Assembly (NCBI GenBank): GCA_964019425.1
Contig: OZ025797.1
Span: forward strand, 1,178,001-1,242,000
Direction: 5' to 3'
Origin: Flectonema sp. DT1601
Lineage: Eukaryota
DNA length: 64,000 bases
Every line of letters starts with the position of its first letter. Within the stretch, counting starts at the first letter, position 1. The translations under genes and the position numbers were made by a program. The notes beneath the pieces were generated by a model, which was not told the DNA's origin, searched no databases, and saw only the letters and a program-made list of their open reading frames with translations. This document shows positions 2,943 through 64,000 of the stretch, in pieces.

Positions 2943-2947
2943 TGCCC

Positions 2948-3480: not shown

Positions 3481-3499
3481 TATTTTAAGTAGTTACTAG

Positions 3500-5400: not shown

Positions 5401-5529
5401 CAGTGCTCATATGTTCTGTTCCAGACGAGGAACCTCCCCACGTGGCATTCAAGACCACTAATGTTTTAGGTTTACCTTGGTAATTCTCGTGTTTAGGATC
5501 CATTATACTGCTCTCTCTATCTTTTTGTT

Positions 5530-42458: not shown

Positions 42459-43139
42459 ATGGTTGCCTTCGACGCAGGAGAACAGACTTGCAGAGCTTTC
42501 CAGAAGCAGGTATGTTTTTATTACGATGATGTAATTATTAACTTGGAATTGAAAAATAATAATACACAACAAAAAACAGGGTAACGTCTTCCCAGCCACT
42601 AAGCGTGCTGTGAAGTCGAAGTACCAGAAGAACAGCAAGGGTAACCTTAGACAGTGGAAGACCGTTGGTTTGGGATTCAAGACCCCAAAGGACGCCATTA
42701 CCGGAACCTACGTTGACAACAAGTGCCCATGGACTGGAAAGGTCTCAATCCGTGGACGTATCCTTCGTGGAATTATTAAGAGTACCAAGATGGAGCGTAC
42801 CGTTGTTGTTCGTCGTGATTACCTTCACTGGGTTACCAAGTACCAGAGATACGAAAAGCGTCACATGAACTTCGCTGCCCACTGCAGTCCAGCGTTCCCA
42901 GTTAAGAAGGTTTGTGTGTTTCTAATTACAAATACCACCACACCTTTAGTACTCTCTGAGTGATGATATGATTCAATTTTCATAAACTCATAATATTTTT
43001 AACAACACAGGTTGGTGACGAAGTTGTTGCCGGACAGTGCCGTCCTCTTTCAAAGACTGTTCGTTTCAACGTCTTGAAGATCAACCCAAAGGGTAAGCAA
43101 CGTCTCGAGACCCGCTTCAGAAAGTTCAACAAGTTCTAA
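42459..43139 (+). CDS. RPS11: 40S ribosomal protein S11 (uS17), copy 1; exons 42459-42509, 42580-42909, 43011-43139
   Basis: [46 protein letters not shown]. Two GT-AG introns. Confidence 0.97.
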
Positions 43140-43422
43140 GAAGCTGTTTATTCATCTGATCACTCGTCGGTAGGACCAATCATTTTAAAAAAAAACGGAA
43201 AAAAAAATAAAAAAAAATAAAGAGGGAGTGATAAAGATGTATCCCATTGGTACCTCATCATGAAGTTATGGCTGTGGATGTTGTGAATCAAGACTTGTGT
43301 TTTGTATTTATTTTATACAGCAGGGGAATCTCATACAAAATAATAATCAGAGTCGTTGTTTAGATCATCGCATTGGAGTAGCTCTTCATCCCCTCCTTCA
43401 GTAATCACATAACCCTACAAAA

Positions 43423-44267
43423 ATGGTAGCCTTTGACGCAGGAGAACAGACTTGCAGAGCTTTCCAGAAGCAGGTATGTTTTTATTTAACTTTGAATTAC
43501 AAACCCGTTGCATCAAGACTTGTGTTCTATTCTGCCATTGATCTTTCACCTGTCTGCCGTTCACCACTTGGGGCCAAGCTGAGATAAAAGGTGCGGCATT
43601 CAGTTCACACGACCTCAACTCCTTGCTTGGGATTGTAGTGTTGTTAACTTGGAATTGAATAACTGCACGTTGCAAACCAAAAAACAAAAAAACAGGGTAA
43701 CGTCTTCCCAGCCACTAAGCGTGCTGTGAAGTCGAAGTACCAGAAGAACAGCAAGGGTAACCTTAGACAGTGGAAGACCGTTGGTTTGGGATTCAAGACC
43801 CCAAAGGACGCCATTACCGGAACCTACGTTGACAACAAGTGCCCATGGACTGGAAAGGTTTCAATCCGTGGACGTATCCTTCGTGGAATTATTAAGAGTA
43901 CCAAGATGGAGCGTACCGTTGTTGTTCGTCGTGATTACCTTCACTGGGTTACCAAGTACCAGAGATACGAAAAGCGTCACATGAACTTCGCTGCCCACTG
44001 CAGTCCAGCGTTCCCAGTTAAGAAGGTTTGTGTGTTTCTTACAATAAGACTTTGTACACCACATCTTATTACCTATTCACCTCTCTTAGTACCTGTTCAC
44101 CTTTGGTTGATTTAATTTTCATACTTTTAACAACACAGGTTGGTGACGAAGTTGTTGCCGGACAGTGCCGTCCTCTTTCAAAGACTGTTCGTTTCAACGT
44201 CTTGAAGATCAACCCAAAGGGTAAGCAACGTCTCGAGACCCGCTTCAGAAAGTTCAACAAGTTCTAA
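43423..44267 (+). CDS. RPS11: 40S ribosomal protein S11, copy 2; exons 43423-43473, 43696-44025, 44139-44267
   Basis: Same protein and intron positions as copy 1. Intron 1 is longer (222 nt). Confidence 0.97.
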
Positions 44268-44415
44268 GAAGCTGATTTAGTGTCATCACTGCCTGTCAGT
44301 TAGGGTGCCAATAGGAATTCACAATGGAAATTGTTCTGACATTCTTATTTATTCCTTTTTTTACAGGTACTCAAATGGACTAGGGGGATTGTGATATTTT
44401 CTGAATAAAGCAATC

Positions 44416-44480
44416 ACAATAATATCACAATACCACACAATAATATCACAATACCACACAATAATATCACAATACCACAG
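44416..44480. repeat. 22-bp tandem repeat x3 (CACAATAATATCACAATACCA core)
   Basis: Read directly. An inverted copy of part of the unit (ATTGTGATATT) lies about 20 bp upstream. Confidence 0.85.
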
Positions 44481-44645
44481 AATACCGACCAGTAAAATAA
44501 CAAATCGAGAGTAGTCAACGTGTGACGTAATCTATCGTTCGAAGTGGCTAGAGAGATGGAATACAACAACTTCTGTTTCAGTCTTACTTTCTTTTAATTT
44601 GCACTAAAATTATCTCCCAACAGTTAATTAAGAAGAAGGAGCAAA

Positions 44646-45353
44646 ATGACTTTCGACGCCGGTGAACAGACTTGCAGAGCTTTCCAGAAGCAGGTATGTT
44701 TTCCTTGTTCACTGGAACTTGTTTTTTAGCACAGTGGTGTCTGACGAAACTCATCAAAAAGGTTCTAAAACGAACCTAATAAAAAAAAAATAGGGTAACG
44801 TCTTCCCAGCCACTAAGCGTGCTGTGAAGTCGAAGTACCAGAAGAACAGCAAGGGTAACCTTAGACAGTGGAAGACCGTTGGTTTGGGATTCAAGACCCC
44901 AAAGGACGCCATCACCGGAACCTACGTTGACAAGAAGTGCCCATGGACTGGAAAGGTTTCAATCCGTGGACGTATCCTTCGTGGAATTATTAAGAGTACC
45001 AAGATGGAGCGTACCGTTGTTGTTCGTCGTGATTACCTTCACTGGGTTACCAAGTACCAGAGATACGAAAAGCGTCACATGAACTTCGCTGCCCACTGCA
45101 GTCCAGCGTTCCCAGTTAAGAAGGTTTGTGTGTTTCTAATTACAAATACCACCACACCTTTAGTACTCTCTGAGTGATGATATGATTCAATTTTCATAAA
45201 CTCATAATATTTTTAACAACACAGGTTGGTGACGAAGTTGTTGCCGGACAGTGCCGTCCTCTTTCAAAGACTGTTCGTTTCAACGTCTTGAAGATCAACC
45301 CAAAGGGTAAGCAACGTCTCGAGACCCGCTTCAGAAAGTTCAACAAGTTCTAA
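44646..45353 (+). CDS. RPS11: 40S ribosomal protein S11, copy 3; exons 44646-44693, 44794-45123, 45225-45353
   Basis: Starts MTFDAGEQ, has DKKCP instead of DNKCP, same intron positions. Confidence 0.97.
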
Positions 45354-46137
45354 ACAGCTTGTTCACGTTACTGAGCGTTATCGTGTAGTGGTGGCAGCAG
45401 AAATGTGTTTCTTCTTATTGTTATCAAATTTCTGCAACAACAAAAAAGTGTCGTAGTTTATTTTTTCGTTGCATTGCGGGTGACTCTGCACTGGATTTCA
45501 ATTTCTTTTCAGTCTCATTTTCCTCACAGGACTACAAACAGATCTGATTTACTTGAAACTTCCTGCTCTGTTACTCACATCAAATTTCTTTTTTCGCTGT
45601 TTCTGCATGCCACTTATTGGGCAATTCTTCTTTTGATTCTCCTCACTAAATGATGAATAATATTCGAACAATCCAACTCTGATCGACCTTTGATGTAAAA
45701 CACCCTATTTAGGAAGAGCCGTCTGATGTTGTGCTTTGTTTGTCTTGTGTCCCTTAATTTCTTGATCAGTTCACACAACTGCGAACGTCTCAATATTTGT
45801 GAAGAGCTGTCCCACAATTTATTGAGGACAGTAACCAGTCTTCTGACTTTTAAAATGCCTGGAAAGGTGATGTGACAAAGTGAGCCACTGTCTGTTAAAA
45901 ATACACATTCACCACCTTGACCAGGACAAAAGAAAACACCCGCTGCCTATCGAAAATAATTTTGAGATTTTTGCTATTCACTAAAAGTGATGCTATTTTT
46001 TTTCGCTGTTCAGTGAACTTCACTATCAATTACAATTTTTTTTTGCATTCGGTTTCGTGCACAAACAAAAAATCACAGTGTTATATCATTATTTTCTGTA
46101 TAGTTGAAGTTAAAGCCAATTCTTTTTTTGCATTTAA

Positions 46138-47887
46138 CCCTTACACCACCGGAGCTGATATATCAGTCTGAAAAATTTTTTTTTTTTTGCTAAGTGAAAA
46201 TTTTGCATTTCTGAGTACAACGATTTCACGGGAGAGGTATTATTGAGATGTCTTTTATGTTCCTTATGTGTTGCGCCGCAATAGTTTTTATTAAATGGTA
46301 AATTTTCCATTTGCTAAAGCTGGCCAAAATCAACTTGGGAAATATGTCGGTCCACAGTTCTGATGAGGATGCAACAGTATTTGTTAATCCATCGTCGGTG
46401 TGCTCCGATTCGTCACTTGACGAAGTATCTGACTCCAAATGGGGAGGGGAGGTAACAAGGGTTACCAAGAATAAAAACGCGTTTCCAAGAAACGTTAAAG
46501 ATTAGAGTTGCACGCAAGTCGGAGCTGCAGGTTTTTGAGTTTTTCTTCGGATAGTCAGTTTTCCAGCTGATGAAGAAAAACTCTGAGGTCTATGCCTCAC
46601 AGAGGGGAAGGAAATTTAAAACCAGTACGCAGGAGCGAAGGGCCTTTGTTGGCACAACACTACTGACGCGCCTCCCAATAAAATCTAACCTAGGGGATTC
46701 CTGGGGTTTGAATGACATGCTGTTGACCCCCCCTGTTGTTCTTTCCGCAAGTGTTTTCACGTAATCGCTTTGCCGAAATACTGAGGAACTTACACTTCTC
46801 TGCGATATTACCTGCTCCCGAGCATGAGGATCCGAAGTGGAGACGTGTATTTTGAATTCCTTTATCCTGATGCGACGTGGGCATGGTGGAATTTGGACGG
46901 ATAGTAGTGAATCTGGCTGGAGAAGCAAGAGATTCTTATCCTTCAAATTGGCTTTGTTTTGGGCAGCTTAGGTACATTTAAACGTACCAGAGCGGCACCA
47001 ACACTATTAATAACACCATCAGTACCGCCTTCTCCACAATCAGTATCAATCCCTGATCGCCTCAAGCCAGCTTTGGGACACTACCCCGGAAAGATGGAAA
47101 AGGCTCGTCAGTGTGCAGTTCGCGCAAAGCGCGCACAATCACTAGATTACTGTGAGCGATGCAACCAAGCGCTTTGTGCTTACCCATATTTCAAAAGGTA
47201 TCACATTCTCCAAAACTACAAAATTCCTTGTGATGTTCCTAAACCGCCAACTTCCCAAAAATCCAGTATGCCAGGCTGGTGGGGTAAAGAGGTGGAAGTT
47301 TATAGATCCAGCCCAACACGGTCTGATCTAAGTAGCTGCACTGTTACTAATGAAGTTCCATGATCTGGGATCGATGTTATTTGTATTTTTCGAGCTTATC
47401 AACCCCGATGCGGTAATCCTCCTGTGTGTCTGAACCTGCTGTGCCATGATGCGGGTTGTTTGTGTATTTTCCGCGACCACAGAGGGCTTTTACAAGCTCA
47501 AAAAACAGGGAAAAAATCTGATTTTTCGATTTAATATCGGCCGTGATTTGGCATTCTCTTTACTTGGGCTCCCTCTGACATGATGTTGCGCAGAAACATC
47601 ATCCCTTTCAAAATACGGGAAGGGAATAACATGCAGCTGCTATGAATGGAAACCGTTGAGTACGTTATTGCGACACTGCCGACTTTGTTAGTTCTGCTGA
47701 ATGTGCAACAACGCACCAAGGTACGCACCGTTAGGTGTGTGGGTGACAGGTGCTATTGACCCGTAGGAGTAGTTGTGTCCGGTTTGGTACATAGGTTTTC
47801 TGGGGGGGTACGGCACCTTTTCTCTTTTTGAAAAAACAGTAAAATTTTGGACCCGTTGTTTTGGGGGTTCTTACGGTGGTGTAAGGG
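46138..47887 (+). mobile_element. piggyBac-like DNA transposon, internally deleted (1750 bp)
   Basis: TTAA TSD at 46134-46137 and 47888-47891. Perfect 14-bp TIR CCCTTACACCACCG/CGGTGGTGTAAGGG. Remnants ERRAFVG, SRNRFAEILRNLHF and C-terminal CERCNQALC...FKRYH. DDD core not found. Confidence 0.93.
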
Positions 47888-48552
47888 TTAACAAGTAAAA
47901 ACGAAAAAGAATATTGGCAGCACGTACTCCTTTAGCTTTATCAAGTCTAAATCGGTTCACAGTTTTGTGCACAAACAAAAAACTCACAAAATGTCGAAAG
48001 TAGATATCCCAAGAATTCGACTGGTTAACTGTCGAGGTGCCTCATATTCCGGAAGTGCGCATCTGTCAGCGAAGGAACATGCAGAAACAGTTATGGAATT
48101 AACTGTAGTGGAGAGTGACGATGGATCCACATAGGGTCGTCACATAGTTGGAAAACCTAAAAACCCCTTCTGGCCTGAATTATGTGTTGGCAGGTTTGCA
48201 ACAGCGTTACAGCACAGTCAACGGAAAAGCAATCCAGGAGACTGCTGCAGAGGGCGGGGGGGCAGTGTCGCACAAAATGCGACACTTGCTGAGATTGACG
48301 GCGCTGCCAGTATACGGAGCCACTAATTGGCCTCGCGCGGCAAACTCACAAAGGGTTATTTTGGAGGAAAGAGGAAGTATTGAATGGAGGAAAAAACCAC
48401 ACGATGTGTGGGGGACCTGTTCCGGAAGGGACGCAAGGCAAAAAGCGGATCGGAAGACCGCCGAAAAAATCACTTGCCATAGTGAACCAAAGAACTCGAG
48501 GCAAAGATCAACTTGGGAGAGTTGCAACCACAGTCGGCGAACCAAGCTAGAG

Positions 48553-48557
48553 AAAAA
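48553..48557 (-). terminator. Pol III oligo-T terminator of tRNA-Ser
   Basis: TTTTT on the minus strand 1 nt after the discriminator base. Confidence 0.75.
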
Positions 48558-48558: not shown

Positions 48559-48640
48559 CGCAGCCGGCAGGGTTTGAACCTGCGCATGCAAAGCACACTC
48601 GCTTAGCAGGCGAGCCCCGTAACCACTTGGGTACGGCTGC
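48559..48640 (-). tRNA. tRNA-Ser (anticodon GCT), 82 nt
   Basis: Acceptor stem GCAGCCG/CGGCTGC plus discriminator G, anticodon arm CTCGC-CTGCTAA-GCGAG, long variable arm, T arm GCAGG-TTCAAAC-CCTGC. Confidence 0.96.
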
Positions 48641-48717
48641 TTCGAGAAAAAAAACTTCTTTTTCTTTTTTCTGGTTACACTCGTCTGTGCTTCCAGACTC
48701 TTTGTTTAAAAAAAAAT

Positions 48718-51700
48718 TATTATAAAATACTGTTGGAAAGGGCAGCGCCCAAATTAGAAAGAATTAAGAATGTACAGAAACTTGCTAATAGGATCAACAA
48801 CGAGATTCTGAGAGCAGCGAGTAGGGCCATCCCAGGCTACAACAAGAAGTCAAGTAGTACCTTCGCTGTGAGGGATTCAGAATTGGAAGATTTGATGGCA
48901 GAGACTGACCCTGATAAGACAGACTCAGAAGCAATTGAAAGAGGTATCAACATGATCAAACAGAAGATCATTGAGTGCGACATGACTGGAATGGACTACC
49001 GATGGGCCTTTAGAAAAGTTAAACAACTGGAAGGTAGAATGATGGACCATTCAATTACTAAGATTGTCGACGGTGAGAAGGAATTAACTGACCCGCGGGA
49101 GATGGCAGATGTCTTCACCAAAACATACGCAGACCAATTCAAATTCGAAGACGGTGAACCAACCTTACAAGGAATACCTGATGACAACTCGGTGGAATTT
49201 GGAATGCCTGAACTGGAACGACAAATTTCAAAAACAAAGGAGAAGAAGGCACCTGGACCGGACCACATCTGGAACTCGATGTTAAAACAACTTCCAAAAG
49301 CTTTCCTCGAGCAACTACTAAGACTATTCAACCTCTCATGGCAACGATCAGCAGTACCCAGGTGCTGGAAAAGTGGAATGGTAATACCCATACTGAAACC
49401 TGATAAAGACAAGAAACAAGTCCTATCGTACAGACCGATAGCACTAACCTCGACCGTCTCGAAACTCTTTGAAAGAATGGTCGTAGAACGGATGCACCAC
49501 CTGTTGAAAGACAGAATGAATCCGAGGCAAGCAGCCTACAAACGAGGACGGGATTCCATTGAAAATCTCTGTATAGTTACAGACAAACTCAAAAGTGCCA
49601 AGGCAATGGGAGAAGAAGCGATATTAATCACCTTCGACCTACAAAAAGCCTTTGATGCAGTTCAACCGGTAACTCTTCTAAATAAGATGTCCAAAATAGG
49701 ACTACCAACGAAATATCTACGGTGGGTTCAAAACTACTTGACTAGTAGGAAGATTTCAACAAGGGTGAATGGAGTGAAGGGAGCATTCCGGAACATTCGA
49801 GTAGGAGTACCACAAGGAAGCGTGCTGGGACCCCAGTTATTCTCTATCTTCATAAATGATTTGATAGATAAACTAGAGATGTACGAACCGACTGTCTTTG
49901 CAGATGATGTTGGAATAGTAATAACCGCAGGCACTGTCAGCTGTTTAGAAAACAAGGTTAACAACGCAGTCAAAATATTTGAAAGGTGGGCACTTGACTC
50001 ACACATCAAAATCAATAAGAACCCTGGCAAGACGGAATACATTCACGTGAGGCCAAGTGGAACACATGACAAGTCCCCAGTGGTAGTATACTCTGAAGAA
50101 CACACATTTAAATATGTGGTGGCCACGGCAGAACAAATGAGTAACCTTGTGAAGGATGATAACTCAACAACTGTAGCTTCAAAAGAAGAATTCGCCATCA
50201 CTCACCTGTATGTCGTTCCAAAACATAAGATCAAAGTCAAGCTACCGAACAAACCGGCGGTACTGAAAACAATGAAGATGAGTGCCCGCTTCCCACAACT
50301 GAAGAAAGTCCACAACAAGGCAGAAATAGATAAGATGCTGGAAAGAGTGGGACCCGGATTACACGGATTTGCCTATGCGGTTGGACGAAAAGTTCACAAG
50401 ACGAATACCGTGCGGTATCTAGGCGTACATTATGACGAGAAGTTAACCTTTAAGTCGCAAATTCAAAAGATGATGACAGCTGCTTCCAAGGGTCTAGGCT
50501 TGTTGGTTAGACTCACCAGGATAGGCTGCAGAAAGAGGACACTCATCAGTATACTGGTGACGGTGGTGTTAGCAAGGGTGCTTTATGGTGTTGAAAGCTT
50601 TGCTTGGATGCTACCAAAAGAGTGCTTCGAACAACTGGAATTACTGGTAAACAGGGCAGTGAGGCTGGTAACTGGATGTCTGCGGAGCACCAAACTACAG
50701 AGACTTTACAAAGAAGCCGACACGCCAAGACTGAAGGAACACATCCAGTATAAGATGTGTAGAACTTATGAACGTTTCAAATTGAGTCCGTTCCTACCGA
50801 CTCGCAAGCTGACGAGAACAGGGAGTTCAGAATTATTTCAAAAATCGAAATGGGGATGGAATGTCTGGATAGACTATGTCTCTGGTGTCCCTGGCCTTGA
50901 CAACTACCGGAGCATTACCAACCTGGAAGTGAACCCAGAACACTACACTGTCCCTCCATGGAAAAGTACTAATGCGATGAAATTCACATATTCACGCAAC
51001 AAGGAAGAGGCTGAACAGCGAGAAACTGAATTACCAGCTCACGAGATGAAAGTCTACACTGACGGGTCGATAAGACACAAACCCAACACTTACATGACAG
51101 ACTCGGCTGCCGCTGTGGTCATGGTTAACGGAAGCAAGATGCGTCTACTTGGATATAAAATACCAGTAGCGGGTTCCTCTTATAGGACCGAGCAGATTGC
51201 AGTGAAACTGGCGTTGGAAAATTTAGTTCAGGTGGCGGAGGATGAACATGAATCTCTAACAACAACGACGCACCTGTTGACTGATTCGATGTCAGTCATG
51301 CAGGCATTGGAACAAGGGCCATATAAACAAAGGTCCCCAATGAACAAAAAGATCTGGAAGTTGGCAATAAAACTGGAGAAGAAGGGAATCCAAGTCAACA
51401 TGCAGTATGTACCGGCACACAGAAACGTGCGGTACAACGAAGTAGCGGACCAACTGGCGAAATTCGCTGCAGGCCTGAAGGAAGATCCACCTCACGAAGA
51501 TGTTATTATTAAACAACTGCCCACTCAACTTGACATGGGAACATTGATGACGTTTCACAAGCGGAGAAAACGGGAGAACTGGATCGGACCGGGAGAGGTA
51601 AGACACCCTCCGTACATCGAAGCTCTAACACGACCAGAGGAAGTACTGATGTCACGCTTTAGAGTGGGACATTGCAGATCTCTGATAATCAAAGGACTGA

Positions 51701-52176
51701 ACGAGCTGTGCTTTTTCTGTAAACTTGGAAAGGCGACAGCACATCATGTATTATTTATATGCGAACATTGGTGTATAGAAACCTTGAGGGAAAAATACAT
51801 CAGTCACATGATGAATGACAAGGGAGAGGAAGCATGCCAACTGGAGGACTGCTACTTACCTGCGAATCAACAGCAGATGACTGGTTTTGTCACAACCTTA
51901 GACAGACTGGCACAACTATTAGGACGGTAGTATTATTAAAACATCGACATTTCGAATATCAACATTGAAGGCATCATTGCAACACATCTGAAGTCGTCCA
52001 AGTGGACAATTTATTCTGTAGTATTAGTTTTAAGTTATCAAAACAAAGAAAGGAGATACGAAGCCTACGGGATTCCCACCCCCAACCCCCAAAACAAAGA
52101 AAGTAAGAAAGAAAGAAAGAAAAAGAACAACCGCGCCTAACAGCGCAATCAGCATCACAGACTCACGGGTCGTGGT

Positions 52177-52202
<26 letters not shown>
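48718..52202 (+). mobile_element. Non-LTR retrotransposon copy 1, 5'-truncated (no ORF1, no APE), poly(A) tail
   Basis: Homology to copy 2 begins at YYKILLERAAPK just after an A9T run. 3' UTR followed by a 33-nt A run (52179-52211) that merges with the 5' A-run of copy 2. Confidence 0.92.
48733..51930 (+). pseudogene. ORF2 remnant: RT + RNase H + C-terminal CCHC; frame open but lacking its 5' end
   Basis: YRPIAL, DLQKAFD, GVPQGSVLGP, FADD, YLG, YTDGS, LTDS, VPAH..NEVADQLAK, CFFC...HVLFIC. Confidence 0.9.
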
Positions 52203-52213
<11 letters not shown>

Positions 52214-52215
52214 AA

Positions 52216-54045
52216 ATGGCTGGTAAGAAAGCAATGCGTCCGCAAGACAGAAGGGCAGCGGAAAGGAGAGAAAGAGAAAGGAAAGAGGCGAAGATGATGA
52301 GGGAACAAGCCAGAAATGAGATCCGGGAAGAAGAAGAGGAGTCTCAGCAGGAGATAGAGTCCCAGCAACAGGAAGAAATGGAGATGGACTCTCCAGAAGT
52401 GCCAGAAGGAATCTCAGTAGAGGTGACCGCAGTAGGACCTCCAGCAGCATTTCAAGCAAGCCCTCAAAACAAGGAGGCAATTCAAACAAAGACAAGCCCT
52501 CAAAACAAAGAGGCAATTCAAATAAGCCCTCAAAACATAGAGGCACAAGGAAGTGTTTTAAAAACAAAACAAAGCCCTCCATCAAATGAGGCACCCCAAT
52601 CAAGCCCTCAAATCAAAGAGGCACAAAGAAGATCGACGGTGATGATGAATGGACCACCACCAAAGTTTAACAAGGAGCATTTTAAATGCAAAATACTCCA
52701 GCCAACTGATGACCTCAACAGCAAGACCAACGGCATTATACTTGCATTATCTCAACAAGGAAGAAACCTGGACGAAGACTACTTCGAAAAGGCTAGCAAA
52801 ACGCAACAACTGACGATAGTGTTCACACGACCACCTCCAAAACGTGCCCTACAACACGCAACTGACTGCAGTCAGATTCAGACGCCAGTCCAATTCGATG
52901 GACAATTAAAAATTAGAAGCTGGTGGTTCGTTACAATGTCAGGCACGACCCACAGACCAACATTGACCATCGCCAAAAAGGTCAACCCACCGGAGACACA
53001 TGAACTGATAGCCTGGATGACAAAGAAGGACATCTCCAAGGCGCAGGTGGAAAGCCCCTCAGCAGTAACAGCCATGATAAAAGCGGTTGTTGCACAACAC
53101 GGAAGGGTGGATCAAAGATCGTACAGATCAGTGGAGGGAGACTTTGCGGAGTTAACAATCCTGCCAACGGATGTAGACTCAGCAGTAAAGTTACTGAAGA
53201 ACTCGGGAACAGACAAGGTCTACTTCCGAATCAAACAAACGCTGGGACAGTCAGCAACCAAGTACAGTACCGTGTGGCTGGACCGCAAGACGACGAATGA
53301 TGAGGCAGTTGGCATTCTGAAAGCCCAACAAGACCTCTGTTACGGACTCACCATCAGCCACGGCAAAATAGGGTTGAGAGTGATTAAAACAAAGGACGTC
53401 GACAAAGTAAGGAAGGGAGCTGGGAAGTACGCCAGCACTGTATACGGCGAAGGGCTACACCGTCTCAGCGGAGCGCCTTACAGCTGGGGCAACAGGCTCC
53501 AGAATATTCTATCGCAGTTGGGACTGAGGTCTAAATTTGTAAGGATGGAGCGGGGTGACTTCATCATCGCGTTGGACAAGAAGCCGGAAACGAAACTTGT
53601 CCAATGTGGTGAGGTAGTCATCCTAATTGAAAAATTAGAAAGTGTGGAAGTGGAAGTGAAGAAACCCGTCGTTGTGAAATACCGCGAGGCCAAGACTTCG
53701 TATGCAGCCGCAGTCAAAAAGACGTTACCGACTCCGAAAAATCCAACAACTGAAGTACAAAACTCTGAGAGCAGTGTTAAGGAACTCAGAGAAAAGACTG
53801 ACAGCATGATGGCACAACTTAAGAATGATGTTACAGATCTGCAGAAAAGATTAGAGGAGGGACTCTACAATCTAACGAAGGTGGTCGCAACCCTGACGGA
53901 GGCCGCTAATAAAAACGAAAAGAACTATAACAACATGGCCATAGCCATCACAAGTCTGGTAGAATCGGTGAAGCGGATGGAAGCCACTATTGGTCTCGGT
54001 CGAACAACAAGTACGAATAGAAACAACAACACTGGCCAATCATGA
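52216..54045 (+). CDS. ORF1 protein, 609 aa: charged N-terminus, SPQ repeats, unassigned central domain, SYAAAV motif, C-terminal coiled coil
   Basis: Lies before ORF2 and overlaps it by ATGA. Homologous to the copy 3 ORF1. No CCHC knuckle. Confidence 0.85.
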   Translation: MAGKKAMRPQDRRAAERRERERKEAKMMREQARNEIREEEEESQQEIESQQQEEMEMDSPEVPEGISVEVTAVGPPAAFQASPQNKEAIQTKTSPQNKEAIQISPQNIEAQGSVLKTKQSPPSNEAPQSSPQIKEAQRRSTVMMNGPPPKFNKEHFKCKILQPTDDLNSKTNGIILALSQQGRNLDEDYFEKASKTQQLTIVFTRPPPKRALQHATDCSQIQTPVQFDGQLKIRSWWFVTMSGTTHRPTLTIAKKVNPPETHELIAWMTKKDISKAQVESPSAVTAMIKAVVAQHGRVDQRSYRSVEGDFAELTILPTDVDSAVKLLKNSGTDKVYFRIKQTLGQSATKYSTVWLDRKTTNDEAVGILKAQQDLCYGLTISHGKIGLRVIKTKDVDKVRKGAGKYASTVYGEGLHRLSGAPYSWGNRLQNILSQLGLRSKFVRMERGDFIIALDKKPETKLVQCGEVVILIEKLESVEVEVKKPVVVKYREAKTSYAAAVKKTLPTPKNPTTEVQNSESSVKELREKTDSMMAQLKNDVTDLQKRLEEGLYNLTKVVATLTEAANKNEKNYNNMAIAITSLVESVKRMEATIGLGRTTSTNRNNNTGQS

Positions 54046-57000
54046 TTGTGATTTGGTCAAATAACATTCGCTCAGTTCTGAAACCAGAAAACTACTTCAA
54101 ACTGAATTGGGCTCTCAAAGAAGAAAAACCTGAAATAATACTACTACAAGAAACATGGTTAACCGATGACAAGCCCTTCTCTGTTGACGGGTACAAAACT
54201 TACAGAAGAGACAGCACCACCAAGATGGGACATCGTGGGCTCATTACATTGGTAAGGAATGATCTTAAAAATGCGATTACTAAACTCAACGACATCTCAT
54301 TTGACCAAACTGAGATACTATCAGTAGAATTACAGTCTAATCCACCTCTTATAATACATAATGTTTACCACCCGCCTGAAATCAAGGCAACAACCTGGAA
54401 GATTAAATCAGAACTCGGCACATTAATTGCAGGTGATATAAATGGACACCATCCGACATGGTCTAATGGAAATAAGAACACTACTGGTATAAGCTTCTAT
54501 AATTGGTCACTGGAAGCTGCGATGAAAGTTATTAACAACCCTCAACAACACACGAGACCGCTAAGCCTGACATCCCCAGACATTGTAGCCTTGGACAACA
54601 CGATGGAAGCAGAAGTTAAAATTATGAGAGGGTGGGGTAGCGACCATCAGCCACTCAAAATAATCATCGAAGAAATAAAGACTCAAGAGCAACATCAGAA
54701 AACTTACAATTGGAAATGGAAATGGCACTGTGCCGACTGGGAATACTACAGAAGAATATTGCAAGCTGCAGCACCCAAGCTGGAACATATAAAAACAGTC
54801 CAAAAACTGGGAGCAAGAATAAACAATGAAATATTAAAGGCAGCGGGAAGGGCCATACCAGGATATAACAAAGAAGTAGGTGGTGCCTTCACAGTGAGGG
54901 ACCCTGAACTTGAGGAGTTAATGACTGAGACGGATCCGGATAAAACAACTACGGATGCTATAGCAGAAGGAATCCGAAAGGTAAAACAGAACATTATCGA
55001 ATGTGATATGTCGGGAAAAGATTATCGGTGGGCCTTTCGGAAAGTCAAACAGCTAGAAGGTAGAACGATCGATCATGCGATCAGTAACATAACACACAAA
55101 GGGAGGGAATTAACTGATTCACAGGAAATAGCAAATGCTTTTACTGAAACGTACGCAAACCAATTCCCGAAAGATGGGGAAATGGAGACAATTTCGGAAC
55201 GACCGGATGAAAATGATGAGGAATTTGGGATGTCGGAACTGGTGAGACAGCTCACAAAAACGAAGGAAAAGAAAGCACCGGGACCCGACAAGATCTGGAA
55301 TTCTATGATCAAACAACTGCCGGAAGCCTTTCTCAAACAACTGTTGCGACTGTTTAACCTGTCATGGCAACGATCAGCTGTACCAAGGTGCTGGAAAAGC
55401 GGTATGGTCATACCCATATTAAAACCAGATAAGGACAAAAAGCAAGTTCTCTCTTATAGACCGATAACACTCACCTCTTCTATTGCGAAGCTCTTTGAGA
55501 GGATGATCGTTGAACGCATGCATCATTTATTAAATAAGACGATGAACCCAAGACAGGCGGCCTACAAACGCGGACGAGATGCTACAGAAAACCTATGCAT
55601 CGTAACTGACCGGCTTCTCAGTGCTAGGGACAGGGGAAAGGAAGCAATACTAATCACCTTTGATCTACAAAAGGCATTTGACGCGGTACAGCCAAAAACT
55701 CTTATGGACAAGATGATGACCGCAGGGTTACCAACAAGGTATCTGAGGTGGGTACAAAACTATCTGACCGGAAGAAAAATCACAACGAGGGTGAACGGAA
55801 CAAAAGGTAATTTCCAAAACATACAAGTGGGTGTACCACAAGGAAGCGTGCTGGGCCCCCAGCTCTTTTCGATATTTATAAACGATTTAATAGAGAAAAT
55901 GGAGAAGTTTGAGCCAACCGTCTTTGCTGACGATGTTGGGATAGTTATCGCATCCGATACCATCAACCGTCTGGAGGATCGAGTCAATGAAGCGGTACGA
56001 ATCTTTGAGGAATGGGCATTAGACTCCCAAATAAAAATTAATAAGAACCCTGGCAAAACTGAATACATTCATGTGAAGCCGAACAGAACGCAGGACAAGT
56101 CCCCAGTTGTGGTGTACTCTGAAGAGCATACTTTTAAATATGTTGTGGCCACAGCAGAACAGATAAGAAACCTTGTGAAAGACGATGGCACAACAACAGT
56201 AGAAAAGAAGGAAGACTATGCTGTCACTCACTTGTACGTGGTGCCGCCACATAGAATAAAGACAAAGCTGCCGAACAAACCAACAGTAATAAAAACACTA
56301 AAGATGAATGCTCAGCGCTTCCCCCAACTAAAGAAAGTTCACAATCGGGGGGAAATAGATAAGATGTTGGAAACAGTGGGGCCAGGACTTCACGGATTCG
56401 CACTTGCAACTGGACGGAAAGTACATAAGTCGAAAGTTGTAAGATACCTGGGAGTACACTATGACGAGAACCTGACATTCGAGTCACAGATGGGGAAAAT
56501 GATGATAGCTGCATCTAGAGGTCTTGGCTTGCTGACTAGACTTACCCGGATAGGCTGTAGGAAGAGAACGCTGATTAGCATCCTAGTGACGGTGGTCCTA
56601 GCAAGGATCCTTTATGGTGTTGAGAGCTTTGCTTGGGTACTAACAAGCAACTTTCTCCAGCAACTGGAATTAATTATAAACAGAACAGTGAGGCTGGTCA
56701 CTGGATGCCTGCGGAGCACAGAATTAACAAGACTGTACGAAGAGGCAGACACTCCACGACTAAAGGAACACATCCAATACAAGATGTGCAGAACATATGA
56801 ACGATTCAAGCTCAGTCCACACCTACCAGCACATGAACTGACAAAAACAAAAAGAATGGAAGAGAACCCACCAAAAACGATATGGGGATGGACTGTCTGG
56901 AATTACTATGTATCTGGGATCCCTGGTCTTGACATAAACAGAAGTATCATAAGCCAAGAAGTAAATCCGGAGCACTACACGCTACCACCGTGGAAAGAAA

Positions 57001-57962
57001 CTAATGCGATGAAGTTCACTTACCCAGGTGACAAAGACGAGGCGAAACGGAGTGAAGCAGACTTACCTGCTCAAGACACGAGAGTTTACACGGATGGGTC
57101 GATAAGACACAAGTCTAAGACCTACATGACGAATGCAGCTGCTGCTGTGGTTATAGTAGACAAAGGCAAGACGTGTCTACTTGGATACAAAATACCGGTG
57201 GCGGGTTCCTCCTACAGGACTGAACAGATCGCTGTAAAATTGGCGATGGAGAATCTTGTTCAAGCAGCGAAGGAGGAACGAGAATGTCCAACAGCAACGA
57301 CGCACCTGTTGACTGATTCGATGTCAGTCATGCAGGCATTGGAACAAGGACCATACAAACAAAGGTCCCCAATGAATAAAGACATCTGGAAGTTAGCTAT
57401 GAAGCTAGAGAGGAAGGGTGTACAAATTAACGTACAGTATGTGCCAGCGCACAGAAATGTACGATACAATGAAGTAGCAGACCAGATTGCGAAATATGCA
57501 GCAGGCCTGAAGGATGATCCACCTTATAAGGATGTAATTATTAAACAACTACCCGCTCAACTTGATATGGGAACGATGATGACCTTCCACAAGCGGAGAA
57601 AACGGGAGAACTGGTTAGGGCCAGGAGAGGTAAGGCACCCTCCATACATTGATGAGCTCACCAGACCGGAAGAAGTGATCATGTCACGCTTTAGAGTGGG
57701 ACACTGCAGATCCTTGAAACTCAAGGGACAAAATGAGAAATGCATTTTCTGTAAAGATGCAAGGGCAACACCACATCATGTGGCCTTATTATGTGAACAC
57801 TGGTGCGTGGAATTCTTAAGAGACAAGTACATCGATCCTATGATAAACGAAGAAGGAGAAGAACCATGTTCTCTAGAAGACTGTTACTTACCGAATAACC
57901 AACGAAAGATGTTAAACTTTGTCACTGTCTTGGACGAACTAGCAGTACTAACAGGAAGGTAA
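54042..57962 (+). CDS. ORF2 protein, 1306 aa: APE endonuclease - RT - RNase H - CCHC
   Basis: SNNIRS, LLQETW, NVYHPP, AGDINGH, SPDI, GSDHQP; FADD; YTDGS; CIFC...HVALLC. Confidence 0.96.
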   Translation: MIVIWSNNIRSVLKPENYFKLNWALKEEKPEIILLQETWLTDDKPFSVDGYKTYRRDSTTKMGHRGLITLVRNDLKNAITKLNDISFDQTEILSVELQSNPPLIIHNVYHPPEIKATTWKIKSELGTLIAGDINGHHPTWSNGNKNTTGISFYNWSLEAAMKVINNPQQHTRPLSLTSPDIVALDNTMEAEVKIMRGWGSDHQPLKIIIEEIKTQEQHQKTYNWKWKWHCADWEYYRRILQAAAPKLEHIKTVQKLGARINNEILKAAGRAIPGYNKEVGGAFTVRDPELEELMTETDPDKTTTDAIAEGIRKVKQNIIECDMSGKDYRWAFRKVKQLEGRTIDHAISNITHKGRELTDSQEIANAFTETYANQFPKDGEMETISERPDENDEEFGMSELVRQLTKTKEKKAPGPDKIWNSMIKQLPEAFLKQLLRLFNLSWQRSAVPRCWKSGMVIPILKPDKDKKQVLSYRPITLTSSIAKLFERMIVERMHHLLNKTMNPRQAAYKRGRDATENLCIVTDRLLSARDRGKEAILITFDLQKAFDAVQPKTLMDKMMTAGLPTRYLRWVQNYLTGRKITTRVNGTKGNFQNIQVGVPQGSVLGPQLFSIFINDLIEKMEKFEPTVFADDVGIVIASDTINRLEDRVNEAVRIFEEWALDSQIKINKNPGKTEYIHVKPNRTQDKSPVVVYSEEHTFKYVVATAEQIRNLVKDDGTTTVEKKEDYAVTHLYVVPPHRIKTKLPNKPTVIKTLKMNAQRFPQLKKVHNRGEIDKMLETVGPGLHGFALATGRKVHKSKVVRYLGVHYDENLTFESQMGKMMIAASRGLGLLTRLTRIGCRKRTLISILVTVVLARILYGVESFAWVLTSNFLQQLELIINRTVRLVTGCLRSTELTRLYEEADTPRLKEHIQYKMCRTYERFKLSPHLPAHELTKTKRMEENPPKTIWGWTVWNYYVSGIPGLDINRSIISQEVNPEHYTLPPWKETNAMKFTYPGDKDEAKRSEADLPAQDTRVYTDGSIRHKSKTYMTNAAAAVVIVDKGKTCLLGYKIPVAGSSYRTEQIAVKLAMENLVQAAKEERECPTATTHLLTDSMSVMQALEQGPYKQRSPMNKDIWKLAMKLERKGVQINVQYVPAHRNVRYNEVADQIAKYAAGLKDDPPYKDVIIKQLPAQLDMGTMMTFHKRRKRENWLGPGEVRHPPYIDELTRPEEVIMSRFRVGHCRSLKLKGQNEKCIFCKDARATPHHVALLCEHWCVEFLRDKYIDPMINEEGEEPCSLEDCYLPNNQRKMLNFVTVLDELAVLTGR

Positions 57963-58317
57963 TCTTATAATCGACAAATGTCAAGATCAAGACCGCAGCC
58001 TACAAGACTAGGAAGTACTGATGGCAATTTAGCAACACATCCGAAGACGTCCAAGTGGACAATTTACTCTGTAGTATTAGTTTTAAGTTATCAAAACAAA
58101 GAAAGGAGATACGAAGCCTACGGGATCCCCACCCCCAACCCCCAAAACAAAGAAAGTAAGAAAGAAAGAAAGAAAAAGAACAACCGCGCCTAACAGCGCA
58201 ATCAGCATCACAGACTCACGGGTCGTGGTGCACACAAAAAAAAAAAAAAAAAATTTGTTTTTGTTCTTTTCACTTCTTTGTTTTGTCTTTCTTTTATACT
58301 TTACAAAAAAAAATAAA

Positions 58318-60210
58318 ATGGCTGGTAAGAAAGCAATGCGTCCGCAAGATAGAAGGGCAGCGGAAAGGAGAGAAAGAGAAAGGAAAGAGGCGAAGATGAT
58401 GAGGGAACAAGCCAGAAATGAGATCCGGGAAGAAGAAGAGGGGTCTCAGCAGGAGATAGAGTCCCAGCAACAGGAAGAAATGGAGATGGACTCTCCAGAA
58501 GTGCCAGAAGGAATCTCAGTAGAGGTGACCGCAGTAGGACCTCCAGCAGCATTTCAAGCAAGCCCTCAAAACAAGGAGGCAATTCAAACAAAGACAAGCC
58601 CTCAAAACAAAGAGGCAATTCAAATAAGCCCTCAAAACATAGAGGCACAAGGAAGTGTTTTAAAAACGAAACAAAGCCCTCCGTCAAATGAGGCACCCCA
58701 ATCAAGCCCTCAAATCAAAGAGGCACAAAGAAGATCAACGGTGATCTTGAATGGACCACCACCGAAACTCAACAAGGAGCATTTTAATTGCAAAATTCTC
58801 CAGCCAACTGATGACCTCAACAGCAAAACCAATGGAATTATACTTTCATTGGCTCAACAAGGAAGAAGCCTGGACGAACAATACTTCGAAAAGGCCAGCA
58901 AAACAAAGCAACTGACGATGGTGTTCACACGGCCACCTCCAAAACGTGCCCTAAAACACGCAACTGACTGCAGTCAGATACAAACGCCGGTCCAATTTGA
59001 TGGGCAAATAAGAATAAGATCATGGTGGTTTGTGACTTTTACCGGAGCAACCTACACCCCAACACTAATAGTGGCAACAAACATAAAGCCACCGATCACT
59101 CACGAACTCATCGCGTGGGCTACAACAAAGGAGCTAGGAGGAGATGCTATCAGAAACCCAGCATCGCTTACTGCAAAAATCAAGGCAGTGGTGGGTGATC
59201 AGGGACGGGTCGACACAAGGACATTCCGGATAGTTGGAAAGGGGGATTTTAGTGAAGTCACAGTCCTACCAAATGATGAAAAGGCAGCAATCGCACTGAT
59301 GCACAACTCAGGGAGTAACAAAGTTTACTTCAGGATAAAATCGATAGAGGGCCTGACCAAGCATGTCTATGAAACAGTATGGCTTGACAGGAAAACTTCG
59401 AATGAGGAAGCCATGGGAGTCCTGAAGGCACAACAAGACATGTGCATGGGGCTGACTACCAACTATGGGAAGATAGGGATAAGGGTGAGTGCCTCTGCAA
59501 ACGTAGAGAAAGTACGGAAGGGTGCCGGAAAATTCGCTGCGCAAGTCTACGGTGCTGGACTGTACCGTATCAGTGGTGCACAGTACAGGTGGTCGAACCG
59601 GCTCCAGGGAATGCTCTTGGAAGCGGGATTAAATTCTAAATTTATTCGCATGGAGAAAGGCGACTTCTTGGTCGCCCTCGATAAAAGTCCGAAAAGCCAG
59701 TTCTTACAATGTGGTGAGACCCTGATGTCTATTGAGAAAATGGAGCTGCCAGAAGACCAAAAACAACCAAAACCAGCCGTACAAAAGTATCGAGATGCGA
59801 AAATATCTTATGCGGAAGCAACTAAAAAGACACTGCAAGGAAACAAGCAGCCCCAAAAACAAGAAAATAAACTGCCCCCATCGCAGGGAAAAACGCAAGA
59901 ACTGAAGAAAGTAGAAGATGGTCTCAAGACTATGAAGGAAAGAACTGACGAGACGCTAGCAAAATTACAAACTGAGGTAGCTGACTTGCAAACTAGATTG
60001 GATGAAACGATGTCAAAAATGACGCAGATAATTGAAGGACTGACCAATGCGACAAAGAAAAATGAAGAAATGATTGTTAAAAATTATCAACAAATGTTGA
60101 ATGCAATATCTCAAATTGCAACCGCCGTCAACAAGATAGAAGCCAAGGTAGGGCTAAGCGGAACTACCCACCAAGTAACAGCAAACCAAAACCACTGTCA
60201 AAATGATTGA
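58318..60210 (+). CDS. ORF1 protein of copy 3 (630 aa from MAGKK)
   Basis: Near-identical N-terminus to copy 2 ORF1, diverged afterwards. Stop overlaps the ORF2 start by 8 nt. Confidence 0.85.
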   Translation: MAGKKAMRPQDRRAAERRERERKEAKMMREQARNEIREEEEGSQQEIESQQQEEMEMDSPEVPEGISVEVTAVGPPAAFQASPQNKEAIQTKTSPQNKEAIQISPQNIEAQGSVLKTKQSPPSNEAPQSSPQIKEAQRRSTVILNGPPPKLNKEHFNCKILQPTDDLNSKTNGIILSLAQQGRSLDEQYFEKASKTKQLTMVFTRPPPKRALKHATDCSQIQTPVQFDGQIRIRSWWFVTFTGATYTPTLIVATNIKPPITHELIAWATTKELGGDAIRNPASLTAKIKAVVGDQGRVDTRTFRIVGKGDFSEVTVLPNDEKAAIALMHNSGSNKVYFRIKSIEGLTKHVYETVWLDRKTSNEEAMGVLKAQQDMCMGLTTNYGKIGIRVSASANVEKVRKGAGKFAAQVYGAGLYRISGAQYRWSNRLQGMLLEAGLNSKFIRMEKGDFLVALDKSPKSQFLQCGETLMSIEKMELPEDQKQPKPAVQKYRDAKISYAEATKKTLQGNKQPQKQENKLPPSQGKTQELKKVEDGLKTMKERTDETLAKLQTEVADLQTRLDETMSKMTQIIEGLTNATKKNEEMIVKNYQQMLNAISQIATAVNKIEAKVGLSGTTHQVTANQNHCQND

Positions 60211-63200
60211 GATTTGGTCCAATAACATAAGATCGATACTACAAAATGAAAACTTCTTCCAATTAAATCGATCGTTAAGAGAGCACAAGCCAGAAATTGT
60301 TCTACTACAAGAAACATGGCTCAATTACGGAAAATTTCTGAATATAGATGGTTATATTATAATTCGAAGAGACAGCCTTCTGAAGGTAGGATACCGAGGT
60401 CTGGCCATACTTGTCAGAATGGATATTAAAAATTATGTGACAAAACTCCCCGACATCTCATACGACCAAACTGAGATACTATCTGTAGAATTGCGATCAA
60501 CACCGCCATTAAAAATACACAATGTATATCACCCGCCTAACGTAACGGCAAACACATGGAAGTTACCAACAGAGCCAGGAACACTGGTAGCAGGCGATAT
60601 CAACGGACATCATGAGATCTGGTCAAAAGGAAAGACGAATTCAGCAGGAACAAGCTTCTATAATTGGTCATTAGAAGCTGCCATGGAAGTATTAAACGAG
60701 CCCCAGCAGATAACGAGACCATTGAGCTCATCCTCCCCAGATATTATTGCTCTGGATAATTCAATGATGGCAAACATAGGACTGCTAAATGGATGGAGTA
60801 GTGACCATCTTCCAATAAGTGTAAAGATTGAAAACATACACTTGACGAAAACCAAAACACAATCGAACGAGATGTGGCAATGGAAATGGAAGTGTGCAAA
60901 GTGGCATGCATACTCGGAGGTTTTAACGACGGCGGCAACGAAGTTAAAGAATATTGAAACAGTGCAAAAACTTGCAAAAAGGATCTCTGTAGAAATTCTG
61001 AAGGCTGCGAAACAAACCATACCGGGCTATAAGAAAAGGACGCAAACCACCTTCTCAGTGATGAACCCAACCAGGACAAAGTTGACAAGGATGCCATTGC
61101 GGAAGGCATCAGAAAAATTAAAAGAAACATCATCGAATGTGACATGACTGGGATGGACTACCAATGGGCTTTCAGAAAAGTAAAGCAACTTGAAGGGGGC
61201 ATTGTTGATAATAACATTAGCGAATTAGAACATGAAGGCAGTACAACAACTGATCCAAAAGAAATGGCAGACATATTTACCACGGCATACGCGACACAAT
61301 TCAATCTGGTAGACGACGAAGTGCCCTCCTTGGTATTTGAGAACAAACCAGGGGACGAAGGCAATGAAGAATTCACAATGAGAGAACTAAAGCGACAGCT
61401 CAAGAAATTAAAAGACAAGAAAGCACCTGGACCGGATGGGGTGTGGAACACTATGTTAAAGAAACTCCCAGAAACATTTATGGTGCAACTCTTACGGCTG
61501 TTCAACATGACTTGGGAAAAGTCGGCGGTTCCGAGATCTTGGAAGTATGGGATAGTAGTTCCAATCTTAAAATCGGGAAAAGACAAGAAACGTGTACTCT
61601 CTTACCGACCAATAACATTGACGTCAGCAATAAGCAAGTTGTTTGAGAAGATGATGGCAGAAAGGATGCATCATTTACTTGGGGACAGAATGAGTGCGCG
61701 GCAAGCCGCATATAAAAGAGGGCGCAGTGCCGTAGAAAATCTCTGCATGATAACAGAGAGACTACTAGATGGAAGGTACCGAGGTAGGGAATCGATGTTA
61801 ATGACGTTTGACCTGCAGAAGGCATTCGATGCCGTCCAACCGAAAATTCTACTGAAGAGGATGTCTGAAGTTGGGATACCGGCGAAATACACAAGATGGG
61901 TCCAGAGCTATTTGACTGGGAGAAAGATCACAACCAGAGTAAACGGCGAAAAGGGAACATTCAAACACATACAAGTTGGAGTACCCCAAGGAAGTGTCCT
62001 AGGACCACAGCTATTCTCGATATACATCGAAAGCCTTATACGAGAATTGAATAGGTATAAACCAGCAGTCTTTGCAGATGATGTTGGGCTCGTGATGACA
62101 TCTCCAGATGTTAAAGGACTGGAGGACAAAGCTAACACAGCAGTACGCATCTTCTCAAATTGGGCCGCAGCATCCCACATTTGTATAAACAAGAGCCCGG
62201 GTAAAACAGAGTTCATACATGTGAGGCCGGATACCGATAGCCAAGACAATAAGTCTCCACAAGTGCTATACCCGGAGGGGCACACCTTCAAATATGTCGT
62301 CACAACAGCAGAGGCCATCCGAAAAATGCTAAATAATCAGGACTCAACTACTATAGGCAATTCTAAAAAGGCGATAACACATTTCTATGTGGTTCCGCAG
62401 CATAAAATAAAACGAAAATTACCGACGACAGAAACTGTATTGGTAGACATGCAGATGGAACCTAGTAAATGCTCACAACTGCAAAAGGTTCGCACCAGAG
62501 GAGACATCCTGAGGATGCTACAAGGAACTGGATCTGGTCTCAAGGCTTTTGCATTTTCGGTGGTGGACAAACTACATGAAACGGATGTAGTAAGATACTT
62601 GGGAGTTCTGTACGACAAAAACCTCGACTTCAAAACTCACATGCGAAAGATGATGACGGCAGCCTCCAGAGGACTGGGGCTCCTGCTAAGACTCTCCAGG
62701 ATGGGATGCAGGAAGAGAACCCTCATCTGTGTTCTGGTGACCGTTGTAATGGCGAGAGTGCTCTATGGGGTTGAAAGTTTTGCCTGGCTGCTGCCAAAGA
62801 GAGGTGACGTCAGTCTTGAGAGGCTAAACATCTTAATAAACAGAGCCGCTAGACAGGTAACGGGATGTCTGCCAAGCACCAGACTGAGGAACTTGTACCA
62901 TGAAGCAGATATGCCGAAATTACAAGAACACATACGCTACAAGATGTGTAGGGCCTATGAAGAATTCAAATTAAGTCCCCACCTACCAGCTTGTAGCCTC
63001 ACAATGACGGAGGGAGGCCTAAACTACCCACCAAAAACAGCTTGGGGTCGCATAGTTTGGGATGAATATGTGTCGGGGATCCCGGGACTCGACAAACACA
63101 GAAGCTCGTATCACTCGGAAATCAATCCAAAGCACTATAAGATGCGATCATGGAAGGTAACTAATGCAATGGAATTCAACTACTGTTTTGGAAAAGAAGA

Positions 63201-64000
63201 GGCAAAAGACAAAGAAGCCGGTCTACCAATTGAAGACGTGAAGGTGTACACAGATGGGTCTATTAGACATAGGACGAAGACGTACATGACTAAGTCAGGA
63301 GCATCTGTGATAATAGTGAAGGGTAAGGAAGTTAGCATGACCGGATTCAGAATACCTGTAGCAGGAAGCTCCTACAGAACTGAACAGATAGCCGTGGAAC
63401 AAGCGATGAGGATACTCCTGAAAAACAAAAAGGCATCCGAAGGAATACTTCCCACAACAAAGACGCATATTCTAACTGACTCAATGTCGCTAATACAGGC
63501 ACTTGAGCGAGGACCTGAAGAACAGAAATCTGCTACAAACGCATCAATCTGGAAGTTAGCACTGAAACTGGAACACAGAGGTGTTAATATTAACATGCAG
63601 TATGTCCCAGCACATATGGATGTGCTGTATAATGAAATAGCAGACAAGGTGGCAAAACACGCTGCAGGTACGATAAAGAAACCTCCAGATGACAGTGTGG
63701 TACTCGAGAGTTTAGTTACTAGACTGGATATGGGAACCCTTATGACTTTTCACAAGAGAAGAAAACGAGAGGAGTGGATTGGAGCCGGCGAACAGAGGCA
63801 TCCACCTTTTGTAGAAGAACTGACGAGACCACAAGAAGTCCTAATGTCCCGCTTCAGAGTTGGACACTGTAGATCTCTTAAACTAAAAGGAATGAACGAA
63901 CAGTGCATCTTCTGTCATGGAGATACTGCAACACCGCATCATGTGCTTTTCAAGTGCAACCACTGGTGTATCCAAAAGATGAGATCATTGTACATACACA
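60203..64000 (+). pseudogene. ORF2 of copy 3 (APE-RT-RNase H-CCHC), broken by a ~28-nt deletion near 61068
   Basis: APE in ORF 60203-61147. A second frame from ~61069 carries FADD (~62071), YLG (~62596), YTDGS (~63247) and CIFC (~63904) to the window end. Confidence 0.9.

Follow-up and report, generated by a model that had tools for sequence, protein, structure and literature searches.

Targeting of genes that RNA polymerase III (Pol III) transcribes has, according to PMC5911963, been worked out only in yeasts and dictyostelids. TRE5 elements insert 44–54 bp upstream of tRNA genes, oriented like the elements described here, and the product of their first open reading frame (ORF1) binds TFIIIB (PMC5911963); a range of 37–90 bp is given for TRE5-A, and NLTR-A of D. 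purpureum and NLTR-B of P. pallidum, both with RNase H, are placed 2–6 bp and 39–64 bp upstream of tRNA genes (PMC5006619). This study concerns a similar locus in a 64,000-nucleotide stretch of contig OZ025797.1 (the window), in which three related plus-strand retrotransposons without long terminal repeats (non-LTR elements), E1, E2 and E3, lie head-to-tail with their 5′ ends facing a tRNA-Ser(GCT) gene. A preliminary description of this DNA had recognised the arrangement of three divergent elements, and coordinates, Pfam and ARAGORN agree with it; it had also implied that an RNase H-bearing element at tRNA genes was new, a claim that NLTR-A and NLTR-B precede (PMC5006619). The balance of evidence tips towards a preference of the family for the region 60–110 bp upstream of tRNA genes, with the 5′ end toward the gene, and an aim at tRNA genes, known for elements of this type chiefly from social amoebae, is made likely by the three insertions upstream of one tRNA-Ser gene together with other copies in the same flank. 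The features of the stack are:

48559–48640, minus strand: tRNA-Ser(GCT) gene (ARAGORN; Rfam tRNA, 58.3 bits)
48641–48707, no strand: host upstream flank, the tRNA-proximal part of the target region, also read at the starts of the predicted proteins P0147, P0186 and P0194 from other contigs
48701–48707, plus strand: E2's 7-bp target-site duplication (TTTGTTT), left copy
48708–48717, plus strand: E1's 10-bp duplication (A9T, duplicated from the E2 5′ end), left copy; its last 3 bases are microhomology with E1
48715–52202, plus strand: E1, 5′-truncated subfamily-B copy; ORF2 remnant open to 51930 with reverse transcriptase (RT), RNase H and CCHC, 98.1% to P0002
51979–52178, plus strand: E1 3′ module, 196/200 identical to the E2 module, with a predicted stem-loop at 52151–52178, then poly(A)
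52203–58253, plus strand: E2, full-length intact subfamily-A copy; 13-base A-tract leader, ORF1, ORF2, 3′ module (58032–58231) and A18 tail (58236–58253)
52216–54045, plus strand: E2 ORF1, 609 amino acids (aa)
54042–57962, plus strand: E2 ORF2, 1306 aa, APE-RT-RNase H-CCHC, with a 4-nt overlap with the ORF1 stop
56106–56423, plus strand: RT insert in E2 ORF2, ~100 residues, placed by FADD-to-YLG spacing and a structure model
58254–58260, plus strand: right copy of the 7-bp E2 duplication
58261–58304, no strand: displaced host flank, 44 bp, which in the rebuilt empty site occupies positions 68–111 upstream of tRNA +1
58305–64000, plus strand: E3, 5′-complete subfamily-C copy extending past the window end; ORF1 58318–60210 (630 aa), ORF2 from 60203, broken

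The tRNA-Ser(GCT) gene is the sole tRNA gene that ARAGORN finds in the window, has a T5 terminator directly past it (48553–48557) and is likely to be functional. An Rfam scan of 42000–64000 gave no other RNA above chance, including small nuclear RNA (snRNA), 5S and spliced-leader (SL) RNA. RVT_1 and RNase_H are present in all three elements and APE in E2 and E3 (Pfam), the truncation point of E1 lying within the APE-RT linker. Representatives of all three subfamilies carry a CX2CX8HX4C knuckle and intact catalytic motifs, and the ORF2 domain order APE-RT-RNase H-CCHC given earlier thus stands on both Pfam and conserved motifs. Subfamilies A (E2), B (E1) and C (E3) share 60–74% ORF2 identity, with nucleotide values of 74% for E1/E2 and 65.5% for E2/E3, and the ORF2 of E3 is frameshifted, relative to intact relatives, by a short deletion near 61060. 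A poly(A) 3′ end, variable 5′ truncation and short target-site duplications are all present, as in APE-type non-LTR elements. The RT model matches the structures of R2 (Z 29.8, root-mean-square deviation (rmsd) 3.3, 415 aligned) and L1 ORF2p (Z 28.7, rmsd 3.5, 418 aligned).

The order of events could be read by comparing the window with contigs from other sequencing runs, including X1 and X3 (two samples, two studies). Contigs of X1 (n = 1) and X3 (n = 2) agree with the window as far as 48707, where they pass straight to the sequence of 58261–58290, and E1 and E2 therefore interrupt a single host flank; the 44 bp separating E2 from E3 are displaced host flank, not element sequence. Subfamily-B homology begins at 48715, and the right copy of the A9T duplication is found at 52203–52212. 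The insertion site of E1, TTT/A9, lies in the 5′ A-tract of E2, and because the same A9T leader also stands before the E3 start codon, E1 most likely entered the 5′ end of E2. Duplication and microhomology at E1 are typical of target-primed reverse transcription. The target-site duplications establish three separate insertions at one locus, as had been proposed when repeated independent hits were described, and E1 is younger than E2. Judged from the decay of E3, E2 would have arrived later than E3, and E1 would be the youngest of the three. At the E2 site (48701–48707) the predicted primer strand ends A-rich and would be unable to pair with the poly(A) tail; priming there was probably not by base-pairing. 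No contig covers 48300–48621 (tRNA body and downstream DNA) in any of four runs (4/4), a gap that proves nothing.

Counted from tRNA +1, the E2 duplication ends at 67 bp, E1 begins at 75–77 bp, and E3, prior to the arrival of E2 and E1, lay 111 bp away in the rebuilt empty site. The stack start first placed 60–77 bp upstream is in agreement with these values, as is the TRE5-like orientation (5′ end facing the tRNA 5′ end, with host-flank insertions at 67 and 111 bp, at one locus). The fixed distance claimed with them is replaced by a range of 64–111 bp.

The family comprises about 160 ORF2 copies, with 31 (A), 91 (B) and 39 (C) clustered ORF2 proteins. The members listed (e.g., 15 of the 91 for B) sit on at least 56 contigs (22.4 Mb), which were told apart by length only, and at least two subfamilies occur together on 15/56 of these (raw count). 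Flanks at other copies were read from predicted proteins whose frame begins outside the element, which covers in-frame junctions only. An N-terminal extension of at least five residues was found in 20 of the 118 ENA family proteins, and eight of the 20 were dropped as frameshifted element sequence (P0139, P0190, P0195, P0207, P0230, P0232, P0233 and P0245). The other 12 junctions include three in the tRNA-Ser flank, two in a second flank and three in a family tail, so that 8/12 are at recurring targets. P0186 and P0194 match at 17/17 residues through the rebuilt empty site (residues 8–17 reading through the displaced flank), with an ORF1 joint about 97 bp from tRNA +1. P0147 matches the tRNA-Ser flank at 5/6 residues, with an ORF2 joint about 64 bp from +1, and is suggestive only; two such matches occur across the window's 6669 start codons. 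A second, GC-rich flank (8/9 residues) is common to P0192 and P0201, from contigs of 227,357 and 103,393 bases; it could belong to another tRNA gene or represent the 3′ end of subfamily C. The proteins P0131 and P0174 start within the 3′ module and poly(A) and run directly into a truncated copy, and P0138 begins with a module-like stretch. The start of P0192 was also considered as a reversed tRNA box A; this was rejected as evidence, a similar pattern in P0139 being frameshifted element sequence.

As read from these junctions, the choice of insertion site is non-random, spread over about 50 bp. No common sequence marks the three cut sites of the tRNA-Ser flank, which fits a choice based on position. 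A chance estimate used 161 copies, genomes of 280–50 Mb and ~200 tRNA genes, a number assumed from D. papillatum, for which 211 tRNA genes, in as many as 10 identical copies, are reported (PMC10161547). It gave 0.015–0.08 divergent 5′ ends expected genome-wide at 120 bp or less from a tRNA gene, before a second insertion in the flank is counted. Searches with ORF2 found 16 loci in metagenome contigs (25–46% identity, not close relatives), with a tRNA at 0/16, and no match in genome contigs or viral contigs; the DNA pattern of the flank had 0 matches in metagenome contigs, and among the sequencing runs no RNA data set was listed as containing the sequence.

Several observations weigh against a preference for tRNA genes. 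Only one tRNA-linked locus was observed, the shared flanks elsewhere being known from peptides; P0186 and P0194 probably represent a single insertion, and the match of P0147 spans only six residues. Four junctions (P0180, P0181, P0219 and P0223) match none of the recurring targets, and E1, P0131 and P0174 lie in A-tracts of resident copies, where a tRNA is not needed. The range of 64–111 bp is also wider and further out than the 44–54 bp usual for TRE5 (PMC5911963).

The alternative that survives best, which we regard as unlikely, is that piling is driven by sequence: the endonuclease would favour DNA that is pyrimidine-rich or forms A-tracts, its own family's poly(A) tails and 5′ A-tracts among them, stacks would grow wherever a first copy had landed, and the tRNA would be incidental. 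The E1 site is as this predicts, as are the junctions of P0131 and P0174, the module-like start of P0138 and the co-occurrence of subfamilies on 15 of 56 contigs, and the type-I flank and the P0181 flank both appear pyrimidine-rich. However, E2, P0147 and P0186 adjoin host flank whose cut site lacks an A-tract, and since T-rich tracts are common in this DNA, sequence preference alone would not lead one to expect three contigs in one 50-bp flank; a first landing so close to a tRNA gene is also poorly accounted for, given the low expectation calculated above.

A second alternative, which we find less probable again, makes the flank part of a multi-copy cassette, e.g., a small-RNA gene diverging ~100 bp upstream of the tRNA gene or an unrecognised repeat abutting it. 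It is motivated by the tRNA–snRNA arrangement of trypanosomatids, in which a divergent tRNA gene ~100 bp away provides the promoter for an snRNA gene (PMC4950102, PMC2784804), the snRNA gene starting ~104 bp from box A of the tRNA gene (PMC4950102) or across spacers of 93–105 bp (PMC2784804), as these sources describe it. The flank does recur on other contigs and is assembled in runs of depth 2–3.5, which suggests several copies, and the X1 contig extends a further 161 letters, none of the joints listed for it leading back to ORF1. Yet at least two recurring flanks plus several unique ones better suit dispersed tRNA gene families, Rfam finds none of the candidate small RNAs (snRNA, 5S or SL RNA) in 42000–64000, and the U2, 5S and SL genes of D. 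papillatum are described as forming a tandem repeat of their own (PMC10161547).

An array made by tandem duplication or recombination, or an assembly chimera, is very improbable: the junction regions are near-identical (3′ module 98%, ORF1 head 98.8%) and no compared contig covers the whole stretch, but the bodies are only 62–74% identical and belong to three subfamilies of 31, 91 and 39 members, the shared heads recur in all combinations elsewhere and are thus a family trait, and the two nested duplications fit sequential insertion. The subfamily-A and -B regions compared have near-identical contigs in other runs, none of which spans the array, and a chimera, which the preliminary description had named as a result that would overturn it, is unlikely and has left no sign, independent runs holding the joined empty flank.

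A preference for tRNA genes would bring attention to those parts of the element that could direct it, and two are candidates, ORF1p (as in TRE5-A) and the RT insert. The spacing from FADD to YLG is 173–175 residues in 6/7 diplonemid proteins (one being truncated) and 72–78 in 32 of the 38 other matches measured (six not scorable). The ~100 extra residues are common to the Flectonema elements, and are modelled as a beta-rich domain (predicted local distance difference test (pLDDT) about 80–95) with no sequence match in Pfam or PDB and a best Atlas value of 0.87.

ORF1 appears modular. Its first 420 nt (the head) are 98.8% identical between E2 and E3 compared with 62% for the core. Among 50 proteins examined, 30 had an intact N-terminus and could be typed: head alpha is carried by cores of all three kinds, A, B and C (5, 4 and 2), beta by A and B (3 and 13, with one more unassigned) and gamma by C (2). 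Head types are spread over cores, and therefore ORF1 heads have been exchanged between subfamilies. No Pfam family scores above cut-off for ORF1, 1.84 billion proteins yielded only host copies and three weak matches (E 3e-4), and the best ESM Atlas value was 0.85. The structure model is poor (mean pLDDT 49.9); its best structure match (Z 8.0, rmsd 2.1, 68 aligned) and PTB (E 3e-4) accompany a predicted architecture that suggests RRM-like domains plus a C-terminal coiled coil. P0253 and P0254 are weak, distant ORF1 relatives (E 3e-4), possibly ORF1 proteins of long interspersed nuclear elements (LINEs) of other protists. P0177 (contig of 349,797 bases) joins ORF1, without a change of frame, to the final 48 residues of subfamily-B ORF2, through an internal deletion or a nested insertion.

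At the other end, E1 and E2 are 98% identical over the 3′ 200 nt, which close with a predicted stem-loop ahead of the poly(A) (z −3.7 and −4.0), likely a recognition element for the RT; TRE5-A also requires a 3′ hairpin, as described in PMC3159450. There is no 5′ untranslated region (UTR) beyond the 13-base A-rich leader, and for a 5′ ribozyme there is no Rfam match, the 5′ folds having z −1.4 and 0.5. Pol III transcription of the element from tRNA boxes was considered and is not supported, sense-strand T-runs not being depleted (E2 has seven runs of T4 or longer against 6.5 when shuffled).

From these observations a working model could be proposed. The element RNA, with its stem-loop and poly(A) end, would be bound by ORF2p and by ORF1p through its predicted RRM-like and coiled-coil parts, and the particle would be attracted by the Pol III machinery or by open chromatin made by it. 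APE would then nick without strict sequence, A-tracts at the ends of resident copies serving as extra sites. At this locus E2 and E3 entered host flank 44 bp apart, followed by E1 into the A-tract at the E2 5′ end; new copies would push older ones away from the tRNA. Without a 5′ UTR, transcription may occur by read-through from co-oriented host genes or an upstream copy, or else from a promoter within the conserved first 420 nt of ORF1.

What is new here is the host lineage, the 100-residue RT insert (its fold predicted), the lack of a 5′ UTR and the exchanged ORF1 head. It could be speculated further, as a tentative proposal that is doubtful as a whole, that tRNA targeting arose independently in Euglenozoa, in a diplonemid-specific RNase H LINE lineage that docks to Pol III via the RT insert or ORF1p, is transcribed by read-through without a 5′ UTR, and swaps ORF1 heads within tRNA stacks. 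If true, a case from Discoba would extend a convergent strategy to a further eukaryotic supergroup, and to a lineage in which divergent small-RNA genes also take their promoters from tRNA genes. A multi-copy family that is intact and near-identical and has a unique RT insert lets one test directly which part of the protein determines the site; LINEs targeted by position also attract interest for safe-harbour gene insertion. Should the targeting fail, what is left is a diplonemid lineage of LINEs not described before, whose RT has an extra domain and whose ORF1 is modular.

The rest of the window is occupied by host genes and other mobile elements. All nine ORFs of at least 300 aa between 8.3 and 45 kb (9/9) are on the plus strand, as expected for euglenozoan gene clusters. 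Judged from this gene layout and from the relatives of the element, the host is likely a marine diplonemid; the ribosomal protein uS17, examined as a host marker, was uninformative. These nine long host ORFs (8322–45200) are co-oriented with the LINE stack and include a HECT ligase, a RUS1-type protein and two kinase-like ORFs; a divergent dynein heavy chain among the host ORFs is split at 20147–20153. The gene for ribosomal protein uS17 (S11) is present in three tandem copies (42456–45359) that are 91–92% identical. Between these and the tRNA gene, an element with 18-bp terminal inverted repeats, TTAA ends and no long ORF (46134–47891), which we take to be piggyBac-like, sits in a short repeat also present at 29155–29290. 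A transposon cluster (773–8275) at the left end of the window contains:

773–2626, minus strand: MULE transposase with SWIM finger
2711–3485: short tandem repeats
3703–4830: hAT fragment
5462–6067: fragments of another RT element

Among known systems, the diplonemid Flectonema neradi supplies the only close named relatives, in the form of transcripts (EukProt EP01060; 45–59% ORF2 identity); its elements, known from the transcriptome only, have the same RT insert and form one clade with the family, and a search for a Flectonema ORF1 found none. The best non-diplonemid ORF2 matches are RNase H-bearing elements, those with names being from Littorina (31–37% identity). A quick IQ-TREE analysis of 67 RT domains out of 118 (each diplonemid and each RNase H-bearing one, plus every third of the others) put the seven diplonemid RTs on one long branch (SH-aLRT, the branch test used here, 100), which upholds the lineage of its own proposed at the outset. 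That branch falls among RNase H-bearing rows (SH-aLRT 84, unstarred), in a tree whose rows include no named clade references. RNase H after the RT and a C-terminal CCHC knuckle are features of the RNase H-bearing I group, which we take to comprise I, Nimb, Ingi/L1Tc, R1 and Tad1. The family has the same APE-RT-RNase H order as I-group elements but differs in its own long branch and in an RT insert absent from the relatives measured. Ingi elements have a single ORF and a 5′ signature with a hepatitis delta virus-like ribozyme/promoter, whereas the family has a separate ORF1 of 609–630 aa and a 13-base A-rich leader without a 5′ ribozyme signature; these differences and the CCHC knuckle make the earlier comparison with Ingi doubtful. 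The family resembles TRE5 and NLTR-B in how it works without being a TRE5, and it lacks the Ingi features named above. A single ORF is stated in PMC13708176 for Vingi, the sister clade of Ingi, only.

The D. papillatum genome is described as containing LINE-1, SLACS, R2 and jockey-like ORFs, with its transposons awaiting rigorous study (PMC10161547), and the open full-text literature, which leaves Repbase and most subscription papers outside its scope, yielded no tRNA-targeted non-LTR element in Euglenozoa. TRE5-A of D. discoideum, a member of the L1 clade, resembles the family in pointing its 5′ end toward the tRNA 5′ end and in its overlapping ORFs, 3′ hairpin module, oligo(A) and repeated hits; as described, it differs in having no RNase H, a 200-bp A-module promoter and a position ~50 bp upstream (PMC3159450, PMC5911963), RNase H being present and a 5′ UTR absent in the family. 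Nearest in design are NLTR-A and NLTR-B, which like the family combine APE, RT and RNase H with insertion upstream of tRNA genes (PMC5006619, PMC5911963). Compared with their published descriptions, the family stands apart by RNase H and CCHC in one ORF2, the RT insert, a position at 64–111 bp and a probable diplonemid host.

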